From Sedimentisphaerales bacterium (GTDB lineage Bacteria; Planctomycetota; Phycisphaerae; Sedimentisphaerales; Anaerobacaceae), in assembly GCA_963708075.1 (NCBI GenBank), contig OY970194.1, forward strand, positions 5,920,001 through 5,984,000: 64,000 nucleotides of DNA, read 5' to 3'. The notes beneath the pieces are model-generated. The model was not told the origin of the DNA. It did no database searches and saw only the letters and a program-made list of their open reading frames with translations. The position numbers were made by a program, and so were the translations under genes. Below are positions 23,113 to 44,137 of the stretch, piece by piece (the first letter of the stretch is position 1; each line of letters starts with the position of its first letter).

Positions 23113-24792
23113 ATGAGAAAGCGTCTGTTCCCGTGGTCTGTGACGTTGTGGCTTGTTCTGTGTGCAGGCTGCGCCGTGGATTCCCGGCGGGACGAGGGAG
23201 CCCGGATCGTCCGGGAGCACGTGGCGAAGGTCGAGCCGGTGGCGAGGCGGGCGAATCTGACGTATTGGGAGGCGGCCACCACGGGCAAAGCGGAGAAGTT
23301 CCAGGAGTACGCACAGCTCCAGTTGCAGATTCGACGGATCTACAGCGATCCGAACGAGTTCGCCCGTGTCAAGGCGCTGCGGAAATCCGGCATTCGTGAC
23401 CCCCGGCTGGCTCGGCAGGTAGACAAGCTGTACTACGCATACCTTCAGAACCAGGTCGAGCCCGACCTGCTCAAGGGGATCGTGGAGCTCGATACGCAGG
23501 TGCAGGAGGCGTACAACAACTATCGAGCCACGATCGATGGCCGTAAGGTCACGATGAGCGACATTTACACAACCCTGACGACGGACGCGGATTGCGGCAA
23601 ACGCGAGGCGGCGTGGCGGGCCAGCAGGCAGGTCGGCAACGTGATCGTCGAGGATTTCCTGAGGCTCGTCAGGCTGAGGAACCAGGCGGCCCGGCGGCTT
23701 GGCTTCGACAACTTCCACACGATGACCATCGTCGCCGGCGAGCAGAATGTGAAAGAGCTTGACCGCATATTCGACGAGCTGGACCGACTGACCCGCAAGC
23801 CCTTCCTTGGGATGAAGAAAGAACTCGATGGGATTCTCGCTAAGAGCTACGGGATCACGCCGGAGGAGCTCATGCCGTGGCATTATCACGATCCGTTCTT
23901 TCAGCGGACGCCGCTCGTTTATGAGCTGGACCTCGATCAGTACTACAAGGGACGGGACGTGAAGGAGCTTTCACGACGGTACTACGCGAGTGTCGGCCTG
24001 CCCATTGACGACATCCTGGCACGCAGCGATCTGTATGATCGTGAGGGCAAATATCCGCACGCGTTCAGCCACGACGTGGATCGCAGCGGCGACGTTCGCG
24101 TCCTCGCCAACCTGCAGGACACGGAGCGATGGATGGAGACGCTTCTGCACGAGCTGGGCCATGCGGTCTATGACAGGTACCACGATCCGAACGAGCCGTG
24201 GCTGCTGCGCGAGCCGGCGCATGCGTTCACCACGGAGGCGATTGCGATGTTCTTCGGCCGGCTTAGCCGCAACGCCTCGTGGATGCAGCAGATGCTCAAT
24301 CTATCCGATGAAGAGACGGCGAGAATCAGACAGGTCAGCGAGCGATACCTGCGCTTCCAGCAGGTCCTGTTCGTCCGCTGGGCACTGGTCATGTACCACT
24401 TCGAGAAGGCCCTGTACGCCGACCCGGACCAGGACTTGAACAACCTGTGGTGGGACCTCGTGGAGAAGTATCAGCTAGTCAGGCGTCCGCCGGGTGCGGC
24501 CGATGCGGGCTGGCTCTCCAAGCTGCACTTCACGACCGCCCCGTGCTATTATCACAACTACATGCTCGGCGAATTGCTGGCCTCTCAACTGCACGATCAC
24601 ATCGTGCACAAGGTGTTAAAGCTTGAATCGGACGAGGGTCTCAGCTATGTTGGCGACCAGCGCGTAGGTCGGTACCTGCGCGAAAACGTGTTCGGCCCCG
24701 GCGCCCGCTACTCCTGGAATGAGATGATCGTCCGGGCCACGGGCCGGCCGCTATCGCCAAAGTATTTTGTCGAGCAGTTTGTGAGCCCATGA
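23113..24792 (+). CDS. M2/M3-family metallopeptidase (probable lipoprotein)
   Basis: LLHELGH, TEAIAM, YYHNYMLGE; signal peptide ending CAGC. Confidence 0.82.
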   Translation: MRKRLFPWSVTLWLVLCAGCAVDSRRDEGARIVREHVAKVEPVARRANLTYWEAATTGKAEKFQEYAQLQLQIRRIYSDPNEFARVKALRKSGIRDPRLARQVDKLYYAYLQNQVEPDLLKGIVELDTQVQEAYNNYRATIDGRKVTMSDIYTTLTTDADCGKREAAWRASRQVGNVIVEDFLRLVRLRNQAARRLGFDNFHTMTIVAGEQNVKELDRIFDELDRLTRKPFLGMKKELDGILAKSYGITPEELMPWHYHDPFFQRTPLVYELDLDQYYKGRDVKELSRRYYASVGLPIDDILARSDLYDREGKYPHAFSHDVDRSGDVRVLANLQDTERWMETLLHELGHAVYDRYHDPNEPWLLREPAHAFTTEAIAMFFGRLSRNASWMQQMLNLSDEETARIRQVSERYLRFQQVLFVRWALVMYHFEKALYADPDQDLNNLWWDLVEKYQLVRRPPGAADAGWLSKLHFTTAPCYYHNYMLGELLASQLHDHIVHKVLKLESDEGLSYVGDQRVGRYLRENVFGPGARYSWNEMIVRATGRPLSPKYFVEQFVSP

Positions 24793-26239
24793 TTTACCTG
24801 ATTGCCGTTTTAGCCTATCTTCTCGTCCTGACCGGAATCGGAATCTACAAGTCGCGCCAGGTCAAGACGCAGGCGGATTTCTCGGTGGCGGGCCGGTCGC
24901 TGTCGCCGTGGATCCTGGTTTGTACGATGCTGGCGGCCTGGATCGGCACGGGCTCGATCGTGGGCAACGCCGGCATGACGTACGAGAGCGGTCTGGCCGC
25001 CCTGATTCTGCCCATCGGCAGCGTGATCGGCATGATCCTGCTGACCCGGGTCGCGCCGCGGGCCCGCAGCTACGAGGTCTATTCCGTCCCCGAGATCATC
25101 GGCTCCCGCTACGGCCAGACCGCCCGACTGCTGGCCGTGCTGGCCCTGGTGCTCGCGTACATGGTCATCGTCAGCTACCAGTTCAACGCGCTTGGGGCCG
25201 TCCTCAACGCCATCCTGACCGACAAGGCCGGCAATCCGATTATCTCTGAGAAAATCGGGACGATCATCGCGGCGGTATTCATCATCACCTATACGGTCCT
25301 CGCCGGCCTCTTGAGCCTCGCCTACACCGATATCGTGACGGGGATCATCATCACCGTCTCGCTCATCCTTGCCTTTCCCGTCTTGTGGGGCCAGGCCGGT
25401 GGCTGGAGCGGCATGGAGGCCGGCTTCACGGCCATGGGCAAGTCCGAGCACATGAAATTCTGGGGCGTCTTCAGTCCCGCCCAGATCATCAACTACACGC
25501 TGCCGGTCTTTCTGCTGATCATGGGCGACGCCAATCAGTATCAGCGGTTCTTCGCGAGCAAGAGCGCCAGGGCGCCAAGAACGCCGTCACGTTCATGGTG
25601 TTCGCCGTGCTGGTGATCGAGAGCCTGATCATCCTGGAGGCCTGGATCGCCTCCAGCCTGATGCCGAACGCCGCAGTCGGCAAGTATGTCCTGATCTATG
25701 CCGCGAAGGATTACATGCCGATTGTCCTGGGCATGCTCTTCATGGTCACCATCGTCGGCATCATCATCTCGACCGCGGACTCGTTCCTTCTGATCCCGGC
25801 GACTTGTCTCATCCGCGACGTCTATCTGAACTACATCAACCCGAAGGCGTCGGATAGGAGGACCGTGCTCCTCAGCCGTTTGCTGGTGCTGTTCCTTGGC
25901 GTTGTTGCTTACGCTGTTTCACTGTCCTTCGCCCGTTCGACCACGATATTTCACAGGGCCATGTATGCGTACACGATCTACGGAGCGGCGATCACGCCGT
26001 GCCTGGTAGCCGCGCTGTTCTGGAAGCGAGCGACAACAACCGGCGCCATCGCATCCATCGTCGGCGGGACTGTGACGGCGTTGGTCTGGTCGAGTGTGAA
26101 TTTCGGCGACAGTGCTTCGTTCAAGTGGCTGGCGGAGCTCGATGCGGTGCTGCCGGCGATTACGGTCTCCGTGCTTGGCCTGGTTGTCGGCAGTCTGCTG
26201 ACCGAAAGAAAGCCGTCGCTGCTTGTGGCCTGCGAGTGA
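24789..26239 (+). CDS. Sodium:solute symporter (PutP-like), frameshift at ~25570
   Basis: DFSVAGRSL, WIGTGS, YQRFFAS, ISTADS. ORFs 24789..25616 and 25385..26239 join if one base is added near GCCAGGGC. Confidence 0.85.
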
Positions 26240-26242
26240 CGT

Positions 26243-27622
26243 ATGTTCGCCAGAGAAACCTACATCCAAAGGAGAGAACGGCTCAAGGCCCAGGTTTCAT
26301 CAGGGCTCATTCTGCTGCCGGGCAACGAGGAATCGCCGATGAACTATGCGGCGAACCCGTATCCATTCCGGCAGGACAGCACGTTCCTGTATTTCTTTGG
26401 GCTGGACCAGCCGGGTTTGGCGGCTGTGATCGATGTCGAGGAGGGCACGGAGTGTGTCTTCGGCGACGATCCGACCGTCGAAGAGATCGTGTGGACGGGC
26501 CCTGTGCCGCTGCTGCGCGACAGATGCAGCCGCGTGGGTGTGACGCAGACGGCTCCGAGCGATAAATTGCAGCAAGTCCTGAACGAGGCCGCCCGGCAGG
26601 GAAGGACGATCCACTTTCCCCCTCAATACCGCGCAGAGAACATCCGGAAGATCAATCAGTTGTGGAGCCCGAAGGCTCCTCCTGCACCTTCGCCGGCGCT
26701 CATCAAGGCGGTCGTTCAGCAAAGATCGATCAAGTCGGGGGAGGAGATCGAGCAGATCGAGGCGGCCCTCGATATCTCCCGGCAAATGCACATCACCGCG
26801 ATGCAGATGGCTCGGCCGGGCGTGGTCGAGCGGGAAGTGGCGGGGGCGATGGAGGGGATCGCGATATCCAATGGCGTACGGTTGGCGTATTCCGCCATCT
26901 TCTCCACCCATGGCGAGACGATGCACAATCCCTACTATGACAACGTGTTGAAGGCCGGCGATATCGTCGTCAACGACTCCGGTGCCGAGTCGCCGCTGCA
27001 CTACGCCAGTGACATCACGCGGACCATTCCCATCGGCGGCCGGTTCTCGCCGCGACAGGGAGAGATCTACTCCATCGTGCTCGATGCGCAGCAGAAAGCC
27101 CTCGGTTTGGCAAAGCCTGGAATCGAGTGGCGCGAGGTCCACCGATTGGCCGCCGTCGCTCTGATGGAAGGCCTCAAGGGACTTGGACTGATTCGGGGCG
27201 ACCCGGAGGAGGCGGTGGCGGCGGGGGCGCACACGATGTTTCTGCCCTGCGGCGTCGGTCACATGATGGGACTCGACGTGCACGACATGGAGGCGCTCGG
27301 CGAGGACTACGTCGGCTATACAGACACAATCAAGCGCAATCCGGAATTCGGCTGGCGCTACCTGCGGCTGGCCAAAGCCATTGAGCCGGGTTTCGTCATC
27401 ACGGTCGAGCCGGGCATCTACTTCATCCCGCAGCTTATCGACCAATGGCGAGCGGAAGACAAGTGCGGCCGGTTCATCAACTACGACAAGGTCGAGGAGT
27501 ATCGGGATTTCCACGGCATCCGGATTGAAGACAACATTGTAGTGACCGCCGACGGCTGCCGCGTCCTTGGCCGGCCGATCCCCAAGACCATCGAAGAAGT
27601 CGAAGCCATGACCTCCATGTGA
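26243..27622 (+). CDS. pepP: Xaa-Pro aminopeptidase (M24B)
   Basis: [40 protein letters not shown]. Confidence 0.9.
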
Positions 27623-27630
27623 GGAGCACT

Positions 27631-28698
27631 ATGCCCAGAACGAAGATCATCGCCACGCTGGGGCCCGCCAGCGGCAGCTATACCGTACTGCGCAAGATGG
27701 TGACGGCCGGCCTCGATGTCGTGCGGCTGAATTTCTCGCACGGCAGCCGTGACGAGCATGTCGAGCGGATTAAACTGATCCGCCGGATCAACAAGAAGTA
27801 CCGGCGCGCGATCAAGATCATGCAGGACCTCGAAGGATTTCGCATCCGCATCGGGCGGTTCAAAGGCTCCGAGACGCGCGAGTTGAAGGACCATTCCACC
27901 GTCTGGCTGACGAACGAGGCGGCGGTGGACGGTCCCAAGACGATCCCCTTCGATTACCACGGGGACTTGAGCCGGATCAAGCCCGGGCAAATGGTGTATA
28001 TCGACGATGGGAACCTTGCCCTGCGCGTCAAAGAGGTCAGTGGGGGCAGCCTCAAGGCCGTTGTGGTCGAAGGCGGCATCCTCAAGGAGAGAAAAGGCAT
28101 CAACATGCCCGGGGCGGACCTCGACTTCGACGGCCTGACCAAGAAGGACAAGGCGGACATTGAGTTCGGCATCGAGCACAAGGTGGATTACATCGCGCTG
28201 TCATTCGTACGCGATGCGAAAGATGTACGAGAGGCCGCCGCGCTGATCAAGCCGAGCCTGCCCGACTGCCAGATCGTGGCGAAGGTCGAGAGCCGCCAGG
28301 CGATCCGCAACATCAATGCCATTATCGCTGCCGCCGATGGAATCATGATCGCCCGCGGGGACATGGGCGTCGCGATCCCGATCTACGAAGTCCCCATCGT
28401 GCAGAAGCAGATCATCCGGAAGTGCAACGCCGCGGGCAAGTTCGTCATCACGGCCACGCAGATGCTCGAGCACATGACCGAGCACAGCCGGCCCACCCGG
28501 GCCGAAGCCACCGACGTGGCCAACGCCATCCTCGACGGCACGGACTTCGTCATGCTCTCGGCCGAGAGCGCCGTCGGCCGCTTCCCCTGTGAATCCGTGC
28601 AAATGATGAACGACATCATCAAATTCACGGAGCAGGCCGTGGAGGCCGGCCTGTGTTCTTCCCGACCCCCAGCGCTCACGCACAAGCGGAGAGCTTGA
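27631..28698 (+). CDS. pyk: Pyruvate kinase (short form without the C-terminal domain)
   Basis: [53 protein letters not shown]. Ends soon after the barrel domain. Confidence 0.92.
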
Positions 28699-30664
28699 GG
28701 ACCTTGCTCAGTGCGGAGAGGGTGAAGAGGAGCGGATACAACTCTTCGAAGTACCAGAGCCGGGCGAAGTACAGGCCGATGGGGGAGGCGGGGGTGGAGT
28801 GGCCCAGGTACGTGTGCGCGATCAGCCAGTCGGCGCCGCGCTGTATCGCTTCGAGTGCGGAATGCGGAGTGCGGAGTGCGGAATGAAGCAAAGCCGTTGC
28901 GAGAGCATCGACCGCCAGCGCTGTCTCCTCGATAGATGATGTGACGGAGGCGGCGCCGCCCCACCCTCCGTCGGAATTCTGTGCGTTCAAGAGCCACCCG
29001 GCCGCATGCTCCTGCATGGCATGAAGCTGCTCCAAATCCACTCCGCATTCCGCAATCCGCAATCCGCAATTGACCAGGTGGGTCATCGCCCGGCTTGTCC
29101 CATACACCGGGTTCTCCTGGCTCGGCGCGAGTTGATTGCCAAACCATAACGGCACCCACGAGCCGTCGGTCCGCTGAGCGTCACGCATATACCGCAAGGC
29201 TCTCGATATCGATTTGCCGGTCCGGCCGCGCAGCGGAGCCGGCAGCGCGTCCAGCCAAACGCTCATGGCGGCGATGGCGTGGGCCGTAATGTCGGGCGTG
29301 CTCTTGTCGAAGGGCAGCTTCGTCCAGCCCCGGCAAAACGTGGGAATGCCGCCGTTGCTGTTCTGAAGGCCCAGGAGCCAGTCGACGCCGGAGACGATTG
29401 CGGAATGCGGAATGCGGAATGCGGATTCGCTCACGCCCGACGATAGTGCGTGCAACGCGATTAGCGCCCCGGCGGTATCGTCCCCATCTGGAACAGCACC
29501 AGGCAGATTCGACCAGCCCCACCCTCCCGGCTCGGCGTGCGTGTAGGGATGCACATCCTGATGCCGGCAGGACAGGAGCCATCGAACCAATTGATTTCGG
29601 ATTGGGTCACTCGCCTCTACTCCGCATTCCGCATTCCGCATTCCGCATTCGAACGCGGCGTTTATCGCCAGCGTCGTGACCCACGTGGCAAGGTTCGTGT
29701 CGATGGGCCAGCTTCCGTCTTCGCGAATCGAGGCGGTCAGGAACTCGACGCCTTTTCTCGTTACTTCGTGGTTCGCACGCCCGGAGGCCGCCAGGCTCAT
29801 GACGACGAATGATGTCAGTGGCGCGGCTTCGAGGAATCCGCCGTTCTCGGGCTGGAGCGTTGTAAGGACCTTGAGGCTCTTCTCGCGGGAAAGACCGCGC
29901 ACGAGTCTTGTGAGCGGATTGCCCGGCTTGAGATGCTCGTATCGAGCCTGACCGATGGCGATCAGCGCCGGCAGGGCGTAGCTGACAACGGGCAGCCGGA
30001 GCCACTTGTAAAGGCGATGCGGAAGCACGGCCAGCTCGAATGGCAACGGCCGAACCAGCCGCCACGCGTCACTTCCCGCGCCCAATCGGCCAGACAGTGC
30101 GGCCATTGTCAGGATCGGCACGGAGAACGTCCGGTCCTTGCCGTACTGCTGTTCCACCGCCTTGGCCAGAGCCTGCGGCTCCAGAGTGCCCGCCTTGCCG
30201 CGGAGCCACGATTCTGCCTTGTGAGTTGCCGGTACCAATTTCGGATTGCGGGGGGTGGCAGCGTCAAGCGCAGCTTGGCGATGGCTTCCCACGAATGTGG
30301 CAGAACCATCGCCAAGGCCTTCGGCCTTGACGCTGCCACCCGCTGAAGTCCTCGGTCCACAATCAACGGCCAGGGCCGAGTAACAAAGCAGCGTGGTGCT
30401 CAGATTGCTTGGGCTTTGCACGGTGTCGCCCCAGCCGCCGTCGGCGTTCTGATGGTTGCAGAGCCAGTGCAGGCCGCGCTCGATGAGCGACCGGTGTTTC
30501 TCGCTATCGGCAGTGGCCAGGGCGAAAACCGCGGTCGCTGTCGATAGCGCGCTGCTGGACAGATGCCCCTCCCAGAAGCCCTGCGGATTCCGGGCGGCCA
30601 GCAGCCTCTCTCGCAAGGCCGCGATTGTGGTGTGCAGAGCATCGTTGTCGATTGGCGAAGTCAT
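28676..30664 (-). CDS. Squalene-hopene cyclase-like class II terpene cyclase
   Basis: DGDDTA (DxDDTA) protonation motif; QW repeats [23 protein letters not shown]; WxPLWFG. Confidence 0.85.
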
Positions 30665-31563
30665 TTGGCAAGGCAGCCCAGCGAGAGCAGACCGTAATAT
30701 GTGTATTCGCAGTCCACAACATCATCGGCCCAGTGGCCGCGGAATCCACCCTGTGAGGTCCACAGGGTATCCAAGTAATCCAGGTGCTTTTCCCTTGTGT
30801 CATCCGCCAGGGCCCCGGCCAGAGACAGCGCGTGCAGGGCGGTGGCGGTCGAGAGCAGATCAGGGATCAGGGGCCCCGTGGGCAGACGAATCGCTGTGAA
30901 TCCGCCCTGCGGGTGCGCCTGCTCCCGCAGCCAGTGGACGGCAGAGTCGGGGATGGCGCGATCCATGTAGTGGAGGATGCAAATCGCGGCGGCGGTTGCG
31001 GCCGTGGCACTTGCAGTCATCGTGGCCTCGTTCGCGTAGCCGCCATCGGGCATTTGCAGGGACTGGATGGATGCGGCCATGCCATCCGGATTGGGACAAT
31101 CGATGCCGAGGTCTTGGAAGGCGCCCAGAGCGAGAAAACTGCCATACGCACTGCCTCGCTCCGCGTGGGCGGCCGCGTTGAATCCGCCGTCCTGAGCTTT
31201 GTACAACTGCAAATGCTCCGCCATGTCCCGGCGTGTCCGGGCGTCCATGGCCTCGCCGCAAATGCCGGATATGTTCGCTCGGCAGCGAGCCAGGCAGGCG
31301 AGGTGCACGAAGTCCAGGGACTCGCCCGTACCGAAGCGGCCCAGGTAATCGGCGACGCGGTCACAGGGAACGCCGGCCTCCAATGCCAGCGATGCTTCCA
31401 GCCCAAAGACGGTGTAGTACAGGTCGCTGCGTCCGTCCCGGCCCTGAAAGCCTCCATCCGGGGCAAGCTGCCGGCGAAGAAAGGCCCTCGCCGCATCCGC
31501 GGATTCACCGAGAGCTTCACTCGCTCTATTCACAGCCCGACGCATGTCCAGCCTGATCGTCAT
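30661..31563 (-). CDS. Prenyltransferase/squalene oxidase repeat protein
   Basis: DGGFQGRDGRSDLYYT, QxPDGGY, DLLSTATAL, DCEYTYYGLL. Stop overlaps the cyclase start. Confidence 0.8.
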   Translation of the reverse strand: MTIRLDMRRAVNRASEALGESADAARAFLRRQLAPDGGFQGRDGRSDLYYTVFGLEASLALEAGVPCDRVADYLGRFGTGESLDFVHLACLARCRANISGICGEAMDARTRRDMAEHLQLYKAQDGGFNAAAHAERGSAYGSFLALGAFQDLGIDCPNPDGMAASIQSLQMPDGGYANEATMTASATAATAAAICILHYMDRAIPDSAVHWLREQAHPQGGFTAIRLPTGPLIPDLLSTATALHALSLAGALADDTREKHLDYLDTLWTSQGGFRGHWADDVVDCEYTYYGLLSLGCLAK

Positions 31564-31638
31564 CGCGGCAGTTCCCGCATCAACTCTTGCCTGGTTCGGT
31601 TTCGTCCATTCTGTTGTAGCACTCCTGGAGTATTGAGT

Positions 31639-31730
31639 GGGTGGCACGGGCAAACTCGTTTGCCCGTGGGGCCTCGGATGGACCGACCCAATCGAAACAG
31701 CACCGTCAAACGAGTCTGGCGGTGCCACCC
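31639..31730. repeat. Palindromic REP-like element (GGGTGGCAC...GTGCCACCC)
   Basis: Terminal inverted repeat; same family as 705-787. Confidence 0.7.
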
Positions 31731-31768
31731 GCTAAGGATACTACCGGGTTTTGAACCGTGCCTCAACG

Positions 31769-33133
31769 TTATGCCGGTCCATTGGGCGATGCCGGCGGCA
31801 CTGCGACGCTCGTTTGCCCTGTCATTTCCTCGGGCTCACCGCCGGCGACCTGAAGTGCGACGATGATCTGCCCCGCCTCGCGGTGCAACGCCGGCAGACG
31901 CCACCCGAATATCAGGGCCGCCATGATGCAGGCTGTGCCGCCGATGGCAACCGTCGCCGGGGCGCCGAGATGGTCTGCCAGTGTGCCGGCCAGGAGCGAG
32001 CCAAAGGGAACCATGCCCAGGAACATCATCGAGTACACGGCCATCACCCGCCCGCGCAGGTGGTCTGGAACCAGGGACTGAATGAGCGTGTTCGCCGAGG
32101 CCAGCCCGATCATCATGGAGAATCCGGCGGGCAAAAGCAGGGTGGCAGACAGCCAGAATGAGCGAGAGCATGAGAACAGGATCAAGCTTGCCCCGAAACC
32201 CACCGCCGCAAGTGCCATCCAGTGGCCCAGGCCTTGAATGTTCTTTTTCGCCGCCAGTACAAGGGCTCCCATCAGGGCGCCGAATCCCGATGCCCCCATC
32301 AGTATTCCATACCCCCGCGATCCGCCGTGCAGAATCTGATCGGCGAAGATCGGCATGAGCACGGCGTAAGGCACTCCCAAAAGGCTGACGAGCCCGACCA
32401 GCAACAGCAAGGCGCGAACCGGTCTCGTCCGTTGGATGTAGCGGAACCCTTCGATGATGCTGCCGATGGTTGAGCCGGCACGCGAGGCGTGCGTTTGGGC
32501 AATCCCGGTCATCATCACAAGCCCGACAATCACGGCAATGAAGCTGATACCATTGGCCAGGAAACACCAGCCTTCACCGATGCTCGCGACCAGGACGCCC
32601 GCCACCGCCGGCCCGACCATGCGTGCGCCGTTAATCATCAATGAATTCAGAGCGATGGCGTTGATGAGGTCCTCTCTGCCCACCATGTCCATGACAAATG
32701 CCTGCCGCGTCGGAATGTCGAACGCGTTGACCACGCCAAGGAAACCGGCGAGCCCGAACACGTGCCAGACCTGCACGTAGCCCGTGAGCGTGAGAGCCGC
32801 CAGAGTAAAGGCGAGGACCATGGCCGCGGTCTGCGTGCCAATGACGATGCAGCGGCGACTGTATCGATCGGCGGTGGAACCCCCGATCAGGCTCAGCAGG
32901 AGGACCGGAATCTGACTGGAGAATGCGACAAATCCCAGCAGTCGCGCCGAGCCGGTCAACCTGTACACCAGCCAGGACTGTGCCGCGGCCTGCATCCACG
33001 TGCCGGTGAGCGAGGTGAACTGCCCTGCAAAGAACAGTTGATAGTTGCGGTGTCGAAGGGCACGCAGCAGGAATGGAATTCCCTTCGACCGCGAGGACTG
33101 CGGGTCCACAGATGCCTTCGCTTGCCCGCCCAT
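31769..33133 (-). CDS. MFS transporter (MFS_3/DHA3-like)
   Basis: ALRHRNYQLFFAGQ, ADRYSRR, PTRQAF, LRGRVMAVY; about 12 TM helices. Start uncertain. Confidence 0.88.
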   Translation of the reverse strand: MGGQAKASVDPQSSRSKGIPFLLRALRHRNYQLFFAGQFTSLTGTWMQAAAQSWLVYRLTGSARLLGFVAFSSQIPVLLLSLIGGSTADRYSRRCIVIGTQTAAMVLAFTLAALTLTGYVQVWHVFGLAGFLGVVNAFDIPTRQAFVMDMVGREDLINAIALNSLMINGARMVGPAVAGVLVASIGEGWCFLANGISFIAVIVGLVMMTGIAQTHASRAGSTIGSIIEGFRYIQRTRPVRALLLLVGLVSLLGVPYAVLMPIFADQILHGGSRGYGILMGASGFGALMGALVLAAKKNIQGLGHWMALAAVGFGASLILFSCSRSFWLSATLLLPAGFSMMIGLASANTLIQSLVPDHLRGRVMAVYSMMFLGMVPFGSLLAGTLADHLGAPATVAIGGTACIMAALIFGWRLPALHREAGQIIVALQVAGGEPEEMTGQTSVAVPPASPNGPA

Positions 33134-33164
33134 GTCACGATTCTCGTTGCCCACGTCTGTTGCC

Positions 33165-34931
33165 TTACTCCCGGCCCGGGGCATGTCGAGCCGGACGTTG
33201 GCCCGGTGCAGCCGGGTCATCGCAGCAGCCCATGATCTCGACATCGTTGAACATCTTGCCGATCACGCGGCGCAGCAGCCCCTTGAGGCCGGCGTTCTTC
33301 AACGCGATACAGCTTGCGATGGCCTGCGATTTGTACGCCTCCAGCAGCCGCCACGCGGAAGCCTCGATCTGGGCAGAGGCGATCATTTGACGCGCACGCT
33401 CGCGGTCCGCGTGCGTCGCTGAGCAGTCCCACAGATGCTCGATCTGCCTCTTGTCTGCCTCGCCTGCATTCTCATGGGCCAGAGCCAGAAGGATCGAGGG
33501 ACGCCTGCCGGTGAAGATCTCCTCGCTGTGCGGCGAGCGGAGGTCGTCGAGGTCATCGTGAATCTGGTAGGCGATGCCGAGCGACTCGCTGTACTGCTTG
33601 AGCACGCCGGCAATCTGCTCGTCGCAGCCGGCGAGTATCGCGCCGAGATTCAGCGCCACTTCAAACGCCGGGGCCGTCTTCATCCGGAAGATGTCGAGGA
33701 CCTCTTTGACCGTCAGCGGCCCGGGCGTGCGCATCCAAGCCAGCTCGCTGCCCTGGCCCAGGCACAGACTACGATGCCCCCGGGCGGCGGCATCGAGGAG
33801 CTTGACTTTCTTTGCATCAGGCGCCTTCACTTCGGCCAGGAGCCTGTACCCTTCGCCAAGCAGCAGATCACCCACGTTGAGCGCGATCGGCACGCCGTAC
33901 TCCGCGTGAAGCGTCCTCTGGCCGTACCGCTCCGCGTCCCCATCCTCGATATCGTCGTGGATCAGGGATGCCTTGTGGAAGCACTCGACGGCGATGGCCA
34001 CTTTGCGGAGGTCTGCCTCGTCCACGTGGGACTCATCCGTGCAGAAGGCGCGATAGGTGCAGACGGCCAGGAACGGCCGCCATCGTTTTCCCGCCCTGGC
34101 CAGCCATTCGAGCGCCACCTGCTCTGTCTGGTTCATGTAGTTTGTAGGGTGTGCATCGCACACCTTCTCCTCGCCGATGGGCTGTTGGTGTGCGGTGCAC
34201 ACCCTACCGAGCAACAAGGCGAGTGCTTCGCGTGAAAACCAGCCGTCCACCTGCCGGTGCAGCGCATCGAGGTCGAGGCGGCGCGTCTGATCGTCGGTGG
34301 TCTGATAGATGGCCTCCCAGACCCAGTCGAGGTCCACGCTCGTGTTGGCGCAGCCGTCCTGGAGCAGGGGGATCGCAATGCCGGGAACCGCCCCGGCTTC
34401 CATGTACGGGAACACTCGTTCGAGAACGGACAGGCAACTGACGCCGACAACGCCCTGAATCTTGCCGGTCTCGATGAGGGACATCACCACCGGCGAGCCC
34501 TCTGCGACGAGCACGGCGTATCCGAGCCGCTCCGCCTGCTCCTTGAAATCGTTGATCACGCACCGGCCGCAATGCTCGCACAGCAGGCCGATCTCGTCAA
34601 AGCTCGCGGGACAGCCATCGACGCTGCGCAGACATTTGGATAGCAGGAGCAAACGCTTCTCAAAGGGAATGGCCGCCACGGTTTCGCGCCAGGCCTCGTT
34701 ATTTATCAGCACGGCGGCGAAGTCCGTGTACTTGGGGTCCGTACTGGTTTTTTCGAGTACAACTCGCGTGTGGGCCCGCAGCTCGTCCAGGGTCAAAGGA
34801 GGGACCGGCCGCTCCTGCTCGACGTAGGCACGGATGGCCGCAAGCAGCTTGTCGCGTGCGTGCTTGCTCTGCGGAATGTTATCCTGAGGCGGCCTCAACG
34901 GCTTGGCCGTCATCACACGGTCATCAGGCAT
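33165..34931 (-). CDS. Polyprenyl synthetase fused to an N-terminal Cys-rich DUF116-like domain
   Basis: GKRWRP, HDDIED (FARM), [11 protein letters not shown] (SARM). N-terminal CLR..C..CEHCGRC and GVSC. Confidence 0.87.
34144..34207. repeat. REP doublet inside the polyprenyl synthetase CDS
   Basis: GTAGGGTGTGCATCGCACACC ... GGTGTGCGGTGCACACCCTAC inverted pair. Confidence 0.8.
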
Positions 34932-36495
34932 ACGCTTGCTTCTCCTCAACCACAGTGCCGGCCGATTGTGCCAATTGCCTGCCCAACCTCTTGAAGGCCC
35001 GTCGCCAGGTGACGATCTCACCCTTGCCCAGGGTTTGCATGATCGCCCGCTTGATCCAGGGCACGCCGCCGGCCCGCTCGTTATCCCAGAACAGCCGCGG
35101 CACCATTTCGAAATTCAATTCGTAGCACGTTCGGTACAACTCTAAATGCTCGGGTGTCATGCTGTCGAGAGAGAACCTGTGGCCGGATGCGATCTCCTCT
35201 TGTGACACGGGCTCATAGAATATAGGGAACACGACCGCGCGTTTGCGGCGCAGGTCTTTCACAAGCTCCAGCGTGGCCGTGACGTCTGCCGGCGTCTCGC
35301 CAGGCAGGCCCAGGATGATGCTGAAGACCGGGAAGAACCCGCAGCGGTTCATTCGGTCGGCCGCCTTGCGAATCATCTGGCCCCAGTTCTCAGGGTCGAA
35401 TGGCGCGATCTTGCCGGGGCTGTTGGCTGCCACCAGGCGCCCGTTGGCGCTCTCTGCACCCATGTTTACCCACAGATAGTCGCTCTTTTGCTCCCATGTC
35501 AGCAGGCGCCGGATCTCCTTGAGTTGCTCGTCGCTCAACTGGAGGACGGAAGAGATGTTCGCGTGGTCGATCTGCATGAAGGAGAGGCCCTTGATCTCCC
35601 GCATGCGTGATAGCAGGCCGTGGAGCCTGTCGAAGTCCGGCCTCACCCCTTGAGCGCCATAGCGGAAGAAATCCTCGCTGCCGCTGACGACCGCCCGCAG
35701 TCCGCCCGCCACGTTCGTCTGTAAGTCCGCGAGAATCGTCTCCTCATCCAGATGCGCCATCTTCTGGCGTGCCATGGCGCAGAACTTGCACCCGCGACCG
35801 CAGCCCCGCGACAATTCGATGATTCCCAGCAGCGACGGCCCCCGGATTGGCTGTATACGCTCAGCGCCGATGTCGGAATCGATGACGTTGGTACCGCAAG
35901 AGCGGCCGCTCAGCAGATCCGAGAAAAGCTGCGGGCCGGACGACTCGAAGTAGCCTTGAAAGACCACATCGGTATCGACGTCGGGTGTTTTGTCGCGGTG
36001 CGAGAGCCATTGCCAGGCGCCGGCTCCGCCCACGACGATCTTGAAGCCGTACTTGCGTTTGAACGCCGTGAGCTGCTCAAGAGTCTTCCGCGTCCAGTAC
36101 TTCGTGTATAGCTCGCCCGACCAGAAACTGGCCGTGGTGGTATTGGACATTCCCATGCCCAACGGGTCGCTGGAGCTGAACGCGACGAGCTTGACCCACG
36201 GTCCCATCAGGTCGGCCAGCCGCTCGGGCGTCGTGCAAACGATGTCCTCGCTGTGCAGGGCGGTGTACTTCAGCAACGCCGACTCGACCCGCCGCAGCCC
36301 AAGCGGGGCGACGTGGGCCCGCCCACCCGCATCCGTCGGTACGCGCGGCGCCAGGAAGCGACGCATGAACACCTCCGGCAAATGCGTGGTTTGCATGGTC
36401 GCGAACATCCCCTCGAACAGGATCCGGTAGCTCGCGCTGAGCGTCCGGTCTGCGACGAGAATGACAGCAGGCCGCAGGGAGTTGTCACCCGTCAT
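34924..36495 (-). CDS. B12-binding-like radical SAM protein resembling the GrsA/GrsB family
   Basis: CGRGCKFC (CxxxCxxC), [42 protein letters not shown]. Confidence 0.85.
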
Positions 36496-37438
36496 GGTCT
36501 GCGTCCTTCCTGTCGGCATCGGCGGTCCGGCCCGACGATTGTCCTGAATTCCCCTGTGATTTGGCGGTGATCCGCTGGACTTCGCTGGGCGAGAGAGAAG
36601 TCAGCACATCCTCCGGGATGCCCAACTCGCGCCGCAGGCTCTCCAGCGTGGGACAGGATCGAGCGGCCGACTGCCCATCCGCTTGCTTTGCGAACCGCTT
36701 GTGCCCCGCCCCGCGTCGGCGGATCGTCTCAAGAATATCGCCCGTAGGGGCAACCCCCTGTGGTTGCCCAACCTGTGCTTGGTCCGGGACCTCTTCGCCA
36801 TTGATATGCGCGTCCGCGTATTTCGGGAAGATGATCGCCTGGTGCGGGCACATTCGGGCACAGGCGGGGCAGTTGGTCTTGCAGCCGGCCGGCTTTCGCA
36901 CCTCGACCCGGCCCTCGTCCGACAACGCGTACACGCCAAACAGACAGAAGTCCAGACATCGTCTGCAATTGTGGCACCGGTCATAGTCAATCACGGGGAA
37001 CCACGGAACCCAATCTGATTGATGATCGATTATTGATGATTGATGATTTGCTGCGCCGGCCGAAGGGGCGGATTTCTCTTCAATCATCAATAATCCATTA
37101 TCCTTCATCAATCCTCGGATGATTTCCTCCGGGGCTTGCGTTCTCATGTTGAAGAGCCGGGCCTGCCCGTTCAGGGGGACCCCGGCCGCGTGGAACAGCC
37201 AGCGAACGGCCCGGGCAAAGCACGCCACAATAGTCAGGGGGGCTCCGTCGGCCCAGGTCTTCAGTCGCAGGTCGCGATTGGCGGCCAGCCCGCACAGGTC
37301 CGGGACCACTTCCAGCGTCACGCCGCTCTGCCGCAGGCCGGCGAGAATCTGCTCTCTTGAGGCCCGGGGGATGATGTCATAATGATCGCACCCACAGAGT
37401 ACCACCCGCGGCCGTTTTGCCGTTTCAGCTACCGTCAT
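36485..37438 (-). CDS. 4Fe-4S dicluster (ferredoxin-like) protein
   Basis: [25 protein letters not shown] and [13 protein letters not shown]; extra N-terminal Cys (CGC, DLC, ACF). Confidence 0.85.
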
Positions 37439-37608
37439 GACGCACTGCCCTATGTACCAGGAAGCCTGTGTGGGACCGGGATCGTGCGACGCCCACAGGA
37501 CTCATCCACAACGAGGCCACTCGTAGGGGCGGGTTTCAAACCCGCCCGCATCCGGCCCCTACCTTCGTCGCAGCCCCGATTATACCCGATCTTCGCCCCC
37601 ATAGTTCA

Positions 37609-38841
37609 CTATTTGATGTCGTATGCGATCAGGGCGTCGCCATGGCGGATGTACAGCCGGCCGCCGGCAATCGTCGGATGGGCCCAATGCTCGTTCGTCC
37701 CCTCGGAAATGGCGAACTGGCTCACCGGCTCGAACGCCGCCGCACTTGGCTTGACCAGACACATCGTCCCATCCTGCCCATAGACGTACAACATCCCATC
37801 GGCAGCGACCACTACTGCCATCTTCGTCGTCGGAGCGTTCCACATCACCTTGCCCGTCTTCCACTCCATGCAGACAAGGCCCTTATTGCCGCTCTGAGCT
37901 GTGCCATAGATATAGCCGTCGATCAGAATCGTACCCTGCATCTGACAATCGAGCGTCTTCTCCGCCCATTTCGGCGCCGCACTGGGGCTGCTCTCCGCCA
38001 GCGACAGCATCGCACTGCCCGTTCCCATGCCCGACGACACAAAGACCATCCCATCCTGATACAGCGGCGGATTGGGCTGCACCCCCGCCCGGTGCGGATA
38101 TTCATGCCGCCAGACGACCTCGCCCGTCCCCGGATCGACCGCCACGACACCCTGCGCCAGCATGGTAAGGATAAGCTGCTTCCCATTGTGATTGACAAGC
38201 CGGGCCGAGCAGCAACCCGGAGCCTGACTGAGCCCCTTCGTCTGCCAGAGGACCTCGCCCGTGTTCTTATCGAAGGCCACAAGCGACGCATCCGTCCCGC
38301 CCACCGTGCAGACCGCCTTCTGACCATCCACAAGCACCGACTCGGCGAACCCAAATTTCGCCTGCCCGGCCCCAAATCGCTCCAGCAGATCCACCGTTTT
38401 GAGCACCTGCCCCTTGGCCGCATCGAAGGTGATGAACTTGCCAAGCCCGGTCACGAGATACGCCCGGTCGCCGTCAATGGTTGGCGTTGCACGCGTGCCC
38501 GCCACCGCCGGACCCTGTTTGTCCAGCTCCGCCCCGTACGCCACCTTCCACTTCGGCGACCCATCGAGCCCAAACGCGAACAGGTAACCCTGCTTCTGCT
38601 CATCCATCCCGGTCACATAAATGACGCCGTTCGCCACCGCGGCCGACGAATACCCCTGCCCCAGCCTCTTAGCCGTCCAGGCCACCTTCGGCCCGCCCTC
38701 CGGCCACCGCTTCAACAGCCCCGTCTCCGGGAACACTCCATCCCCCGCCGCCCCACGAAACCGCGGACAATCCGCCCCCTGAATCCCCGCCGCCAAAGCG
38801 ACTACCACAACGAGCGCTGAAACAATTGTTGTCGCGTTCAT
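37609..38841 (-). CDS. PQQ-binding-like beta-propeller repeat protein
   Basis: Signal peptide then ADCPRFRG, WPEGGP, WAHPTIAGGRLYIRH. Confidence 0.85.
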   Translation of the reverse strand: MNATTIVSALVVVVALAAGIQGADCPRFRGAAGDGVFPETGLLKRWPEGGPKVAWTAKRLGQGYSSAAVANGVIYVTGMDEQKQGYLFAFGLDGSPKWKVAYGAELDKQGPAVAGTRATPTIDGDRAYLVTGLGKFITFDAAKGQVLKTVDLLERFGAGQAKFGFAESVLVDGQKAVCTVGGTDASLVAFDKNTGEVLWQTKGLSQAPGCCSARLVNHNGKQLILTMLAQGVVAVDPGTGEVVWRHEYPHRAGVQPNPPLYQDGMVFVSSGMGTGSAMLSLAESSPSAAPKWAEKTLDCQMQGTILIDGYIYGTAQSGNKGLVCMEWKTGKVMWNAPTTKMAVVVAADGMLYVYGQDGTMCLVKPSAAAFEPVSQFAISEGTNEHWAHPTIAGGRLYIRHGDALIAYDIK

Positions 38842-41745: not shown

Positions 41746-42498
41746 TTATCGTGGCTCCCGCTGCTGTGCCTGCTCGTCCGCTGCAATCTTGACGACTCGG
41801 AACAGATGACGGTCCCCTGGCGTTCGCACGTATCCGCTCGCAACCAAGGGTTTTGACGTTCCATGTGCTTGAATGCCGGCTGCGACTGGATTGTGCTCCA
41901 GGTAATAAATACTCGTGCCGTCGGCTGTCACCACCCGGAGTGCAGGCCAATGCTCATGTCCTTCGTGCAATACGCAAGCCGTGCACACAACTTCCCCCTT
42001 GATCGTCGTCATAGCCTGTGCTGAATGGGGAGACGCCAACCACACCACACCAATGATCGCGAGAGCAGCCAACGAAGCGGCCCAGACGATCGCACCAGGC
42101 CGATAAGCCATTGCCCAGAGGCTTCTTAACTCGGTGCGGATGGTGTCGGTTAATTGCCGGGAAGGCCCCAACAGGATAGCTTGGGATTCTTCGAGTTCCT
42201 GGTCTTGCCTGAAACCGTCAGACTCAAGTTCCGTTCGCACAGCGTTAGCAAATGCGTCCGCTCCTTCCCCCTCAGCTTGCAGTCTTGTCTTCAAACCTCG
42301 TACAAATGCCTCGGCTGAACGCTCTGGCGACTGCGCATGTGACCACATTTCCCACAAGACCAGGTGCTGCTGCAAGTTCCGCCCCAATGCAGGTGATTCG
42401 GCCAGGGCGCGGGCCAACTCCTCCGCTTCCGGCGCCGTCATCTCCCCTTCAAGCAAGCGGCTCAGTAAGTCCTCGTATCGCTCGGGATTCACAGCCAC
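41746..42498 (-). CDS. Putative anti-sigma factor (single TM)
   Basis: N-terminal LLSRLLEGEMT..E..EL helix, one TM helix, CxxC. Overlaps the ECF sigma stop. Confidence 0.6.
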   Translation of the reverse strand: MAVNPERYEDLLSRLLEGEMTAPEAEELARALAESPALGRNLQQHLVLWEMWSHAQSPERSAEAFVRGLKTRLQAEGEGADAFANAVRTELESDGFRQDQELEESQAILLGPSRQLTDTIRTELRSLWAMAYRPGAIVWAASLAALAIIGVVWLASPHSAQAMTTIKGEVVCTACVLHEGHEHWPALRVVTADGTSIYYLEHNPVAAGIQAHGTSKPLVASGYVRTPGDRHLFRVVKIAADEQAQQREPR

Positions 42499-43028
42499 GC
42501 GCCTCCAATCTTTCTTTCAATGCATTCCTTCACCGCGACCCGGAGTCGCAGCAGATTCTGTCTTACAGCATCGGCCTTCATTCCAAATTCACGGGCGAGG
42601 GATGTTGCGTTTTCACCGCCTGAGTACCGACGACGTAGAAGCTCTTGGCTGCGGGGGGGCAATCGTCCGACACACTCCTGCATAGGAGATAGCAAGTGAT
42701 TAAACTCCCTGTCAAAAGCCATGTCTTCGCCGGTTTGGCGCAATAACACTTCCGCAATCGCAGAGGGGAACAAACGTGATCGGCGGGCTTCCTTCCGAAG
42801 CTCGTTGGCGACCAGATTGCGCGCGATGCCGCGGAGCCACTTGGCCAGGTCTGTTGCTGCCTGGGAGACTTCCCGCCGGCGATAGGCGATGATAAAGGTT
42901 TCCTGAGCCAAGTCATCGACCCACGCTTCGTCCGCTCCCAGCGCCCGAATGAATGCGCGTAAGCCCGCCTGGTGCTCGCGCACGGAGCCTTCGAATTCCT
43001 GGATGGATCGTGATTCAATTGAGTTCAT
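42489..43028 (-). CDS. ECF sigma-70 factor
   Basis: DDLAQETF, WLRGIARN, CVGRLP..LL.RRY, LLRLRVAVKECI. Confidence 0.9.
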   Translation of the reverse strand: MNSIESRSIQEFEGSVREHQAGLRAFIRALGADEAWVDDLAQETFIIAYRRREVSQAATDLAKWLRGIARNLVANELRKEARRSRLFPSAIAEVLLRQTGEDMAFDREFNHLLSPMQECVGRLPPRSQELLRRRYSGGENATSLAREFGMKADAVRQNLLRLRVAVKECIERKIGGAWL

Positions 43029-43032
43029 ATTA

Positions 43033-44137
43033 TTGATCTTTGAATAGTTAAAGTAAAAGTGACACGATGTCACAGTCTAAGCCCAGCATGCTTGAAGAAC
43101 GAACGCAAGAGAGACTGGTGAGTTTTTGTCTGCTCCAGCGAATGTCGCACCGCCTGCGTGAGGTCAGTGAGATTCTCCGGGCAGAAGTTGGCCAAGTCCA
43201 TGTACTTCGTCCGCGTCCAGACCTGTTCATCAGGATTGAGTTGCGGGGCGTAGGACGGCAGCCATTCGATTTGTACTCGACGAGGGAACCGACGCCGGAG
43301 TTGCTCCACGGCGGACAGATGAACGGGCCAACGATCCAGGACCAGGATGATCCCGTGGGGAAAATGTTCAAGAAGTTCCGCCACGAGGGTCTCAATGTCG
43401 GGAGTACGGATGTTGTGCTCTTGGAGCGCGAAGTACAGGTCCAGATGCCGACGCTGCGGCGAGACCGTGACCACCGACATTCCGGAGAGGCGGTCGTGAC
43501 GCTCCCAACGGTACAGGAGCGGCGTATCCCCATGGGGACCCCAGGTCCGGCGGACCACCGGCTGGAGCATAAAGCCGGTTTCATCGAGAAAAACGATGTT
43601 TCGACCGCTATGCCGAGCTTTTTTTTATACGCGGCCAGTCTTGTTGACGCCAACGGGCAATGGCCTCTTCGTCGCGTTCGCGCGCCCGGCCTTCGGGTTT
43701 CTGGCAACTCCAGCCGATGCCACGCAGCACGTGCCAGACCCCGGAAGGGTCGTAGCGGACGCCGAAACGCCTCTCGATCACTTCGGCGATCCGCTTCAGC
43801 GTCCACAGGTCGGTCATATATCCGTGGGCGAGAGGACCTTTTAACAGCAACCGTTCCAGCTTCTGGCGTTGCCGGACCGTCAACTTGGGCCGGCGGCCGG
43901 GATGCGGCTTGGCCTTCAAGCCGTCCCGTCCCGCCTGCTGAGAAATCTTCTTCCACCGGGATACAGCCGCCGGCGAGACGCCGAGTCTCCGGGCCACTTC
44001 GCTGGGACCGTGACCGGCTTCGAGCAACGCGAAGGCCTGAAGCCGGTGACATTCGAGCTCTTCGGGTTTTCCTGGGGTTCTCATGCATGAAGATATCGAT
44101 CCGTCACGGCGATTTACTTTAACTATTCAAAGATCAA
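43033..44137 (-). mobile_element. IS630-family insertion sequence
   Basis: Perfect terminal inverted repeats TTGATCTTTGAATAGTTAAAGTAAA, flanking TA duplication (43031-32, 44138-39), and a two-frame transposase. Confidence 0.95.
43070..44084 (-). CDS. IS630 transposase (orfA HTH 43608..44084 + orfB DDE; -1 frameshift at A-run ~43620)
   Basis: HTH with WTLKRIA; FLDETGF, LDRWPVH, LPSYAPQLNPDE; slippery ATAAAAAAAAGC. Confidence 0.9.

Follow-up and report, generated by a model that had tools for sequence, protein, structure and literature searches.

A Grs-family radical SAM protein beside an SHC-like cyclase in a candidate squalene-independent terpenoid cluster of Planctomycetota

Divergent relatives of the squalene-hopene cyclase (SHC) have been described from planctomycetes as an 'SHC-like' clade, whose two-domain members keep the catalytic residues and have a polyprenyl synthase nearby, and for which a precursor other than squalene was predicted (Santana-Molina 2020, PMC7306690). 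A later study lists the clade as of 'unknown function', its function undemonstrated, and places it as sister to epoxy-polyprenyl cyclases (McShea 2025, PMC12324236). Here we analyze a gene cluster at positions 28676-38841 of a 64,000-nucleotide (nt) stretch from a Sedimentisphaerales bacterium (contig OY970194.1, positions 5,920,001 to 5,984,000; hereafter the window), in which such a cyclase and a polyprenyl synthase are encoded together with a radical S-adenosylmethionine (SAM) protein and an Fe-S protein. By term search, 'radical SAM' has 0 occurrences in the main texts of the two papers, and neither these main texts nor the supplement text of the 2020 paper mentions a radical SAM, Fe-S or CobW partner, unlike what is seen in this cluster.

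Other described systems share parts of this arrangement. The archaeal proteins GrsA and GrsB (Saci_1585 and Saci_0240 of Sulfolobus acidocaldarius) have full-length, colinear homology (28-29% identity) to the cluster's radical SAM protein, the same B12-type radical SAM architecture and the same sub-cut-off NCBIfam pattern (TIGR04013), and group with it against Cgm and other B12-type radical SAM proteins. The cluster protein differs in forming a separate clade, in having a host without Tes or geranylgeranylglyceryl phosphate (GGGP) synthase, in lying in a class II cyclase operon and in being replaceable by an unrelated radical SAM protein. That replacement (P0126) resembles Mss (Sahonero-Canavesi 2022, PMC13159169) in its CxxxCxGC, GGEP and EPC motifs and three C-terminal Cys, but is ~60-100 residues shorter at the N-terminus and tied to a terpenoid operon; the comparison runs through an intermediate family. 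The Bacillus sporulenol pathway (HepS/T, YtpB, SqhC; described in PMC7306690) likewise leads from a squalene-independent head-to-tail polyprenyl diphosphate through a processing enzyme to an SHC-type cyclase, but that cyclase belongs to another clade, and where it has YtpB our cluster has a prenyltransferase-beta-fold protein, along with a probably obligatory radical SAM/Fe-S module. The hopanoid pathway (HpnCDE/Sqs, SHC, HpnH) resembles this cluster in that its DxDD cyclase is almost constantly accompanied by a radical SAM protein, whereas here there are no squalene genes, the cyclase is below the SHC cut-off and the radical SAM proteins are not HpnH, HpnJ, HpnP or HpnR.

Five genes form the core of the cluster, those for the Fe-S protein, the radical SAM protein, a DUF116-polyprenyl synthase, the prenyltransferase-beta-fold protein and the SHC-like cyclase. 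The operon likely makes a non-hopanoid terpenoid that needs a radical step. We put at about 0.5 the probability that the core makes, without squalene, a non-hopanoid polycyclic polyprenoid membrane lipid to which the Grs-family radical SAM protein adds one C-C bond. The cyclase clade itself is known, and the cyclase and polyprenyl synthase as a predicted non-squalene pathway are already in print (PMC7306690). The radical module and the swapping of radical enzymes described below were not found in the literature searched, nor was any description of a cyclase-radical SAM link (a search of article text, largely from outside subscription journals).

The Grs-family radical SAM protein and its conserved neighbors

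The window's radical SAM protein (P0001) aligned colinearly, end to end, with S. acidocaldarius GrsA (29% identity, 88% coverage, E 1e-46) and GrsB (28% identity, 85% coverage, E 5e-51; both E values for a database size of 1e9 residues), while the methylase Cgm gave no significant match (E 5). The GrsB reference (P0370) is Q4JC22, so named in PMC13023045; GrsA and Cgm (Saci_1785) were taken to be the S. acidocaldarius paralogues at 1.354 Mb and 1.55 Mb from position and from the presence of only two full-length Grs-type genes. The same species also encodes a 399-amino-acid (aa) Grs-related protein (L144:819-2018, minus strand), and of 47 Sulfolobaceae genomes, about two dozen have similar partial matches. 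Two rules for recognizing Grs proteins have been published (10.1101/2023.10.20.563219 and 10.1101/2022.08.15.504015). P0001 falls within that of Blum et al. (at least 70% coverage, at least 20% identity and E<=1e-40 to both GrsA and GrsB), as do 16 of 25 cluster enzymes when E values are scaled to 1e9 residues and 18 at 1e6. The rule of Garcia et al. asks for E<=1e-20, at least 400 aa and grouping with Grs apart from methylases; its 1e-20 threshold was passed by 25/25 cluster enzymes for GrsA and for GrsB and by 0/25 for Cgm.

A FastTree tree with 132 rows and an IQ-TREE mixture-model tree with 39 selected rows, both without fragments <470 aa and two partial rows, placed the cluster enzymes in one clade of their own inside the Grs family and apart from Cgm (support 100 and 99, respectively), and the Grs family separated from Cgm with support of 99-100; one long outgroup row landed within the ingroup in each tree. 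The clade lies outside the GrsA and GrsB clades, nested in or sister to archaeal Grs, and holds no characterized member. The AT-rich-type proteins P0142 and P0150 branch beside it. A profile of 20 cluster enzymes recovered cluster-type proteins as its first tier, followed by a tier that includes Methanopyrus, Archaeoglobaceae and Bathyarchaeia names, and the close homologues carry the names Sedimentisphaerales, Phycisphaerae and Anaerobaca lacustris. An atlas search with a homologue of the radical SAM protein gave, as nearest, one Planctomycetota cluster and two Bathyarchaeota-rich clusters of B12-type radical SAM proteins.

The CxxxCxxC motif lies at residues 240-247 of P0001, with C240, C244 and C247 invariant, and the protein model (predicted local distance difference test, pLDDT, 91.9) best matched the cobalamin radical SAM protein MgmA (Z 24.5, residues 18-515). 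The Pfam B12-binding domain matched neither P0001 nor the GrsB entry P0370. From the cysteine motif and the modeled N-terminal Rossmann-like cobalamin domain, P0001 is a B12-type radical SAM protein, with cobalamin binding predicted. This fold, and the presence of further methylases (TsrM, CysS and TokK) among the other top structural matches, would also suit a cobalamin-dependent methylase that tailors a cyclic terpene, like HpnP/HpnR or Cgm. We judge this very unlikely, given the lack of matches to Cgm, to TIGR04367 (HpnR) or to DUF4070, a replacement enzyme without a B12 domain and a radical SAM partner in 100/100 cyclase genomes (see below), which would not be expected of an optional methylase. 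None of the HpnH, HpnJ, HpnR and DUF4070 signatures (TIGR03470, TIGR03471, TIGR04367 and DUF4070, in that order) matched at E<=0.001, and a PDB sequence search brought up no close relative (best RimO, E 0.002). Neither a Grs nor an Mss model came up when authentic GrsA/GrsB and the Mss-like proteins were compared with NCBIfam. By its sequence, P0001 is a true member of the Grs family. An earlier note on this DNA had placed it there from its motifs, which are indeed present in the protein, and the assignment is borne out by identity, trees and signatures, against HpnP, HpnR, HpnH and HpnJ as well as Cgm/Gmm (HpnP being judged by signatures, not by direct comparison).

Among 401 Planctomycetota genomes at least 80% complete, including the host genome (G000, one 7.5-Mb contig, 92.8% complete), the Grs-like gene was detected in 29. 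Twenty-four of the 28 other Grs-type loci were fetched. Beside the radical SAM gene, the Fe-S gene was present in 22 of them and the synthase gene in 20; the genes for the prenyltransferase-fold protein and for the cyclase were each there in 18. All misses of the synthase (four) and of the prenyltransferase-fold gene were at contig ends; the cyclase was elsewhere in five genomes. The loci fell into two gene orders, at ~60% and ~39% radical SAM identity. The Fe-S protein, which has the ferredoxin region of HdrA as its best PDB match, is the likely electron partner. An in-frame repeat-derived stretch was noted in its gene (~37000-37100, 22 genomic matches). At ~11 of the 24 loci a propeller, only 24-32% identical to the window's, was encoded upstream of the Fe-S gene and no more than ~1.1 kb from it, and such propellers are abundant paralogues. 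The window's major facilitator superfamily (MFS) transporter had been proposed as the exporter of the pathway; this did not hold, because no MFS match was found at any of the 24 Grs-type loci or of 20 other cyclase loci (0/44). A G000 region of ~800 kb with radical SAM genes and a polyprenyl synthase was considered as a second terpenoid cluster and rejected, as it reads, by eye, as heme biosynthesis.

Grs matches from this phylum have been read as potential for ringed brGDGTs (glycerol dialkyl glycerol tetraethers of the branched type), with GrsA matches in 94 of 684 Planctomycetota metagenome-assembled genomes from the Black Sea (SIGNIFICANCE: PMC11868695) and a GrsB match in Planctomycetaceae (PMC13023045). 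On that reading, which is also consistent with the published thresholds that P0001 passes, the enzyme would be a ring synthase for bacterial membrane-spanning lipids that merely shares the operon. Tes-like matches at E<=1e-30 in 15 of the 28 other Grs-type genomes speak for it too, but all except one are below the cut-off, and the G000 genome lacks the genes expected for a GDGT substrate: it has no Tes over the cut-off (62.6 vs 450 bits), and no GGGP synthase (PcrB, PF01884). An Mss-like match is missing from it as well. The Grs-like gene is, moreover, confined to genomes with an SHC-like cyclase (29/29, one cut by a contig end) and mutually exclusive with the other radical SAM gene, and we regard brGDGT ring synthesis as distinctly unlikely. 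Five genomes (G152, G230, G275, G354 and G097) carry 6-9 sub-cut-off Tes-like radical SAM paralogues each, some in tandem. No Grs-family match in the 401-genome sample was less than 36% identical to the cluster enzyme, and cluster genes adjoined the match at all loci that were fetched. From this sample, rather than from the surveys' own sequences, it appears likely that bacterial Grs relatives are misread when taken as tetraether-lipid markers.

Two radical SAM families in one position

Cyclase orthologues were found in 100 of the 401 genomes, 28 with the Grs-like radical SAM protein and 72 with another, none with both and none with neither, on a scoring of only 3-4 candidates per genome. Outside the 100 were one Grs-like genome whose cyclase is truncated at the end of a contig and a second genome that has the other radical SAM protein and no cyclase match. 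This strict either-or filling of the slot suggests that the radical step is probably obligatory for the pathway. The alternative protein (P0126, 396 aa) has no B12 domain and is unrelated to Grs; its gene stands where the Grs-like gene would be, usually accompanied by the Fe-S gene and by one for a CobW-like GTPase. Of 20 alternative-type cyclase loci, 13 encoded it within the 20 kb that were fetched, and in 11 of these 13 it had the Fe-S gene on one side and the synthase or cyclase gene on the other. The Fe-S gene, seen in 16 of these 20 loci, accompanies both radical SAM types, and both gene orders were found with both. A protein of Lacunimicrobium album represents the alternative version in cultured planctomycetes. 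The search for the alternative protein gave 95 genomes at E<=1e-40; the 73 above a gap from 1.5e-85 to 6.7e-51 were taken as orthologues and 22 were set aside, a threshold chosen after the scores had been seen. Across the well-supported branches of a cyclase tree with 51 members (20 of the Grs type and 31 of the alternative type), the radical SAM type must have changed at least three times.

P0126 has the CxxxCxGC, GGEP and EPC motifs and three C-terminal Cys. It aligns end to end, at 27-31% identity and with all six Cys kept, with a weaker-tier family (P0448) in which the six published Mss motif blocks I-VI can be read by eye; in P0126 itself the blocks can be read in part. The PDB holds no close relative of the alternative protein. 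Because the slot is taken by an unrelated radical SAM protein in 72 of the 100 genomes with a cyclase, the chemistry shared by the two need not be Grs-type cyclopentane formation.

The CobW-like GTPase was considered as a member of the window's cluster and rejected, since 13 of the 20 other loci have it against 2 of the 24 Grs-type loci, and its G000 homologue lies elsewhere. It precedes the Fe-S gene in L040:5795-6880, L041:5863-6948 and 13 of the loci L087-L106, and in L087, L089 and L093 the gene after the cyclase encodes a cysteine-desulfurase-like class V aminotransferase; the two may serve metal or Fe-S loading for the pathway. At many loci the Fe-S gene was split in two.

Cyclase, polyprenyl synthase and the proposed pathway

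The cyclase has its acid motif, PDGDDTAG, intact (D393/D395/D396, invariant in 15/15 aligned), as the earlier note had stated, and is the sole PF13243 (triterpene-cyclase) gene of the host genome. It reached none of the SHC, oxidosqualene cyclase (OSC) and joint SHC/OSC cut-offs of NCBIfam (99.9 vs 431.1 bits for TIGR01507, 118 vs 851 for TIGR03463 and 131 vs 323 for TIGR01787). A divergent two-domain enzyme of a Planctomycetes host that retains its catalytic residues and is encoded near a polyprenyl synthase, it fits the published 'SHC-like' clade of PVC/FCB bacteria (Planctomycetes-Verrucomicrobia-Chlamydiae and Fibrobacteres-Chlorobi-Bacteroidetes) by taxon, gene context and hidden Markov model scores, rather than by placement in the published alignment. 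Five in-frame insertions of repeat DNA were noted in cyclase loops (30235-30365, 29623-29647, 29399-29423, 29044-29068 and ~28857-28885). They are absent from 14 aligned homologues, leave frame and catalytic motif undisturbed, and consist of one palindromic element, which blastn matched 332 times in this genome, and four arrays built from a 7-base unit, a kind of array of which the genome has 32.

No squalene/phytoene synthase had been seen in the window, and none (PF00494) was found in the whole of G000, with the search control positive in 8/14, nor in 25 of the 28 other genomes of the Grs type; the family (SQS_PSY) was present in 3 of those 28 and in 43 of 52 alternative-type genomes (52 of the 72 were searched). 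An ordinary squalene-hopene cyclase, its squalene taken up from the environment or made by genes at other loci, would agree with the intact DxDDTA and with these 43 genomes, but not with a TIGR01507 score so far below cut-off, the missing PF00494 genes or a dedicated polyprenyl synthase adjoining in 20 of 24 loci, and we hold it to be highly improbable.

Seven Cys in the DUF116 domain of the synthase and its first DDxxD motif are conserved in 33 aligned homologues. Three further polyprenyl synthases are encoded elsewhere in G000, and the cluster synthase is therefore probably dedicated to the pathway. It has an Ala five residues before the first DDxxD motif and an invariant His six before GQG, a pattern that, by general chain-length rules, would weakly suggest a product of C20 or longer, perhaps C25-C30. 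Its gene contains an in-frame repeat-derived stretch at ~34143-34171 (9 genomic matches).

The earlier note had counted two cyclase-fold proteins. The smaller one, of 300 aa, models (pLDDT 96.8) closer to protein-prenyltransferase beta subunits (Z 22.4-25.6, with geranylgeranyltransferase type I beta at 25.6 and farnesyltransferase beta at 24.3) than to cyclases (SHC/OSC Z 19.8-20.4, MstE 17.6), and no close relative by sequence was found in the PDB. It lacks DxDD and has an invariant D284-x-E286; Y49, Y50, F53, D235, T239, D284, E286, Y287 and Y290 are invariant in 32/32. At the Zn ligand positions of the beta subunits, in the last two repeats (assigned by eye from repeat correspondence), Asp is kept (D235), and Cys and His are replaced by Leu and Tyr, so that the Zn site of a protein prenyltransferase beta subunit would be incomplete. 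The invariant acidic and aromatic residues would suit prenyl-cation chemistry. An intergenic repeat element between the MFS and prenyltransferase-fold genes (31600-31760, 62 matches) inflates the longest open reading frame (ORF) of the latter.

The gene content, its conservation, the family placements, the missing squalene and tetraether genes and the either-or slot are shown by the data, and the pathway steps are proposed. In this proposed pathway, the synthase would make a dedicated head-to-tail polyprenyl diphosphate of at least C20, perhaps C25-C30. The prenyltransferase-fold protein may ionize it and transfer it to an acceptor or head group. The DxDD cyclase would protonate the terminal alkene and cyclize the chain, and the radical SAM protein would abstract two H from unactivated carbons and join them, either closing a ring or making a tail-to-tail link, while the Fe-S protein would carry electrons; cyclization and the radical step may come in either order. 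Grs forms cyclopentane rings, and the chemistry common to Grs and Mss is the joining of two unactivated lipid carbons (PMC13459092). We favor C-C bond formation because both families seen in the slot, Grs and Mss-like, are known or inferred lipid C-C formers. Two further papers (10.1101/2025.07.29.667474 and PMC12107092) have no bearing on the mechanism.

The same operon and lipid could instead go with a different radical step, either HpnH-like (addition of 5'-deoxyadenosyl to an alkene of the cyclized terpene, starting a polar head) or Ted-like (desaturation that prepares the cyclase substrate). Such simple chemistry would be easily shared by two unrelated lipid-binding radical SAM proteins and fits their repeated swapping. 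HpnH is a near-constant partner of SHC, which counts for the first version. For the second, Ted is a B12-type radical SAM desaturase known among archaeal lipid enzymes (10.1101/2025.10.20.683597). However, P0001 has no HpnH match, the alternative protein scores 34-40 vs 225 bits, no conserved nucleoside phosphorylase was seen among the neighbors scanned, and the second radical SAM protein keeps three C-terminal Cys like Mss-type relatives. We consider this, the main alternative, rather unlikely, though a real possibility.

Several points weigh against the reading in which the radical SAM protein forms a C-C bond in a squalene-free polycyclic lipid. The genomes are related, and 100/100 is not 100 independent tests. 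The radical SAM gene lies away from the cyclase in 5 of 24 Grs-type and 7 of 20 other loci, and Tes-like matches occur in Grs-type genomes, as described above. The alternative protein may be called 'Mss-like' as a lead, from its motifs and the ~30%-identical intermediate family rather than from an authentic Mss sequence. Homologues of Gmm methylate or desaturate, so that close relatives among archaeal lipid radical SAM proteins switch chemistry readily (10.1101/2025.10.20.683597). Finally, the product and the activities of all five core genes are predictions.

The locus and what it may mean

Seven co-oriented ORFs on the minus strand make up the locus (Table 1), with the families given in the earlier note confirmed by the ORF list and a Pfam scan.

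Table 1. Genes of the cluster (window coordinates)
Gene product	Position	Strand	Basis	Role
SHC-like class II terpene cyclase (SQHop_cyclase N+C), 662 aa, DGDDTA intact	28676..30664	-	Pfam	core gene
Single-barrel Prenyltrans protein, protein-prenyltransferase-beta-like fold, ~300 aa, no DxDD	30661..31563 (longest ORF to 31728)	-	Pfam + model	core gene
MFS transporter	31769..33244	-	PF05977/PF07690	local insertion, probably outside pathway
DUF116 (Cys-rich)-trans-polyprenyl diphosphate synthase fusion	33165..34931 (longest ORF to 35021)	-	PF01976 + PF00348	core gene
Grs-family B12-type radical SAM protein (P0001)	34924..36495 (longest ORF to 36519)	-	Radical_SAM	interchangeable radical SAM slot
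Fe-S protein, Cys-containing N-terminal domain + 2x[4Fe-4S] ferredoxin domain	36485..37438	-	Fer4	core gene
PQQ-type beta-propeller, signal-peptide-like N-terminus	37609..38841	-	PF13360 (PQQ_2)	loosely associated

The radical SAM gene likely starts at 36495 (with a purine-rich run resembling a ribosome-binding site upstream), the synthase gene at 34931 and the prenyltransferase-fold gene at 31563. With these starts the three overlapping junctions reported earlier hold, at 11 nt (Fe-S/radical SAM), 8 nt (radical SAM/synthase) and a 4-nt stop/start overlap (prenyltransferase-fold/cyclase). The end of the cyclase gene overlaps a convergent pyruvate kinase gene (27619-28698, plus strand) by 23 nt (28676-28698). 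Elsewhere in the window, a sodium:solute-symporter-like membrane protein (family by eye) appears to be split over the overlapping frames 24789-25616 and 25385-26239 (plus strand), which suggests a frameshift or sequencing error. Two adjoining ORFs at 43070-44084 (minus strand) resemble, by eye, a frameshifted IS630-type transposase (helix-turn-helix + DDE) and lie upstream of genes for an extracytoplasmic function (ECF) sigma factor (42489-43073) and for a probable anti-sigma factor.

With the core defined, the question of the substrate and product of the 'SHC-like' clade, raised by PMC7306690 and PMC12324236, becomes a defined five-gene problem. The radical SAM/Fe-S module would be the missing ingredient, and a cyclase expressed alone could fail. 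The slot would offer a clear example of unrelated radical enzymes, two in number, replacing each other at a single pathway position, and the cluster a candidate non-tetraether function for a Grs-family enzyme. A different reading of Planctomycetota Grs matches bears on the assignment of sources to palaeoclimate proxies. More broadly, though we would advance this only tentatively, about a quarter of Planctomycetota may make undescribed polycyclic isoprenoid lipids by combining cationic class II cyclization with radical C(sp3)-C(sp3) bonding, a step filled repeatedly and interchangeably from the archaeal-type Grs and bacterial Mss-like families. A literature search on tricyclic-terpane precursors gave nothing relevant, and a link to those biomarkers would be speculation. 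If the broader proposal is true, planctomycete 'GrsA' matches would not indicate cyclic brGDGT synthesis, and the pathway could yield a terpenoid that has an extra ring or even spans the membrane, and from which unexplained biomarkers in sediments could derive.

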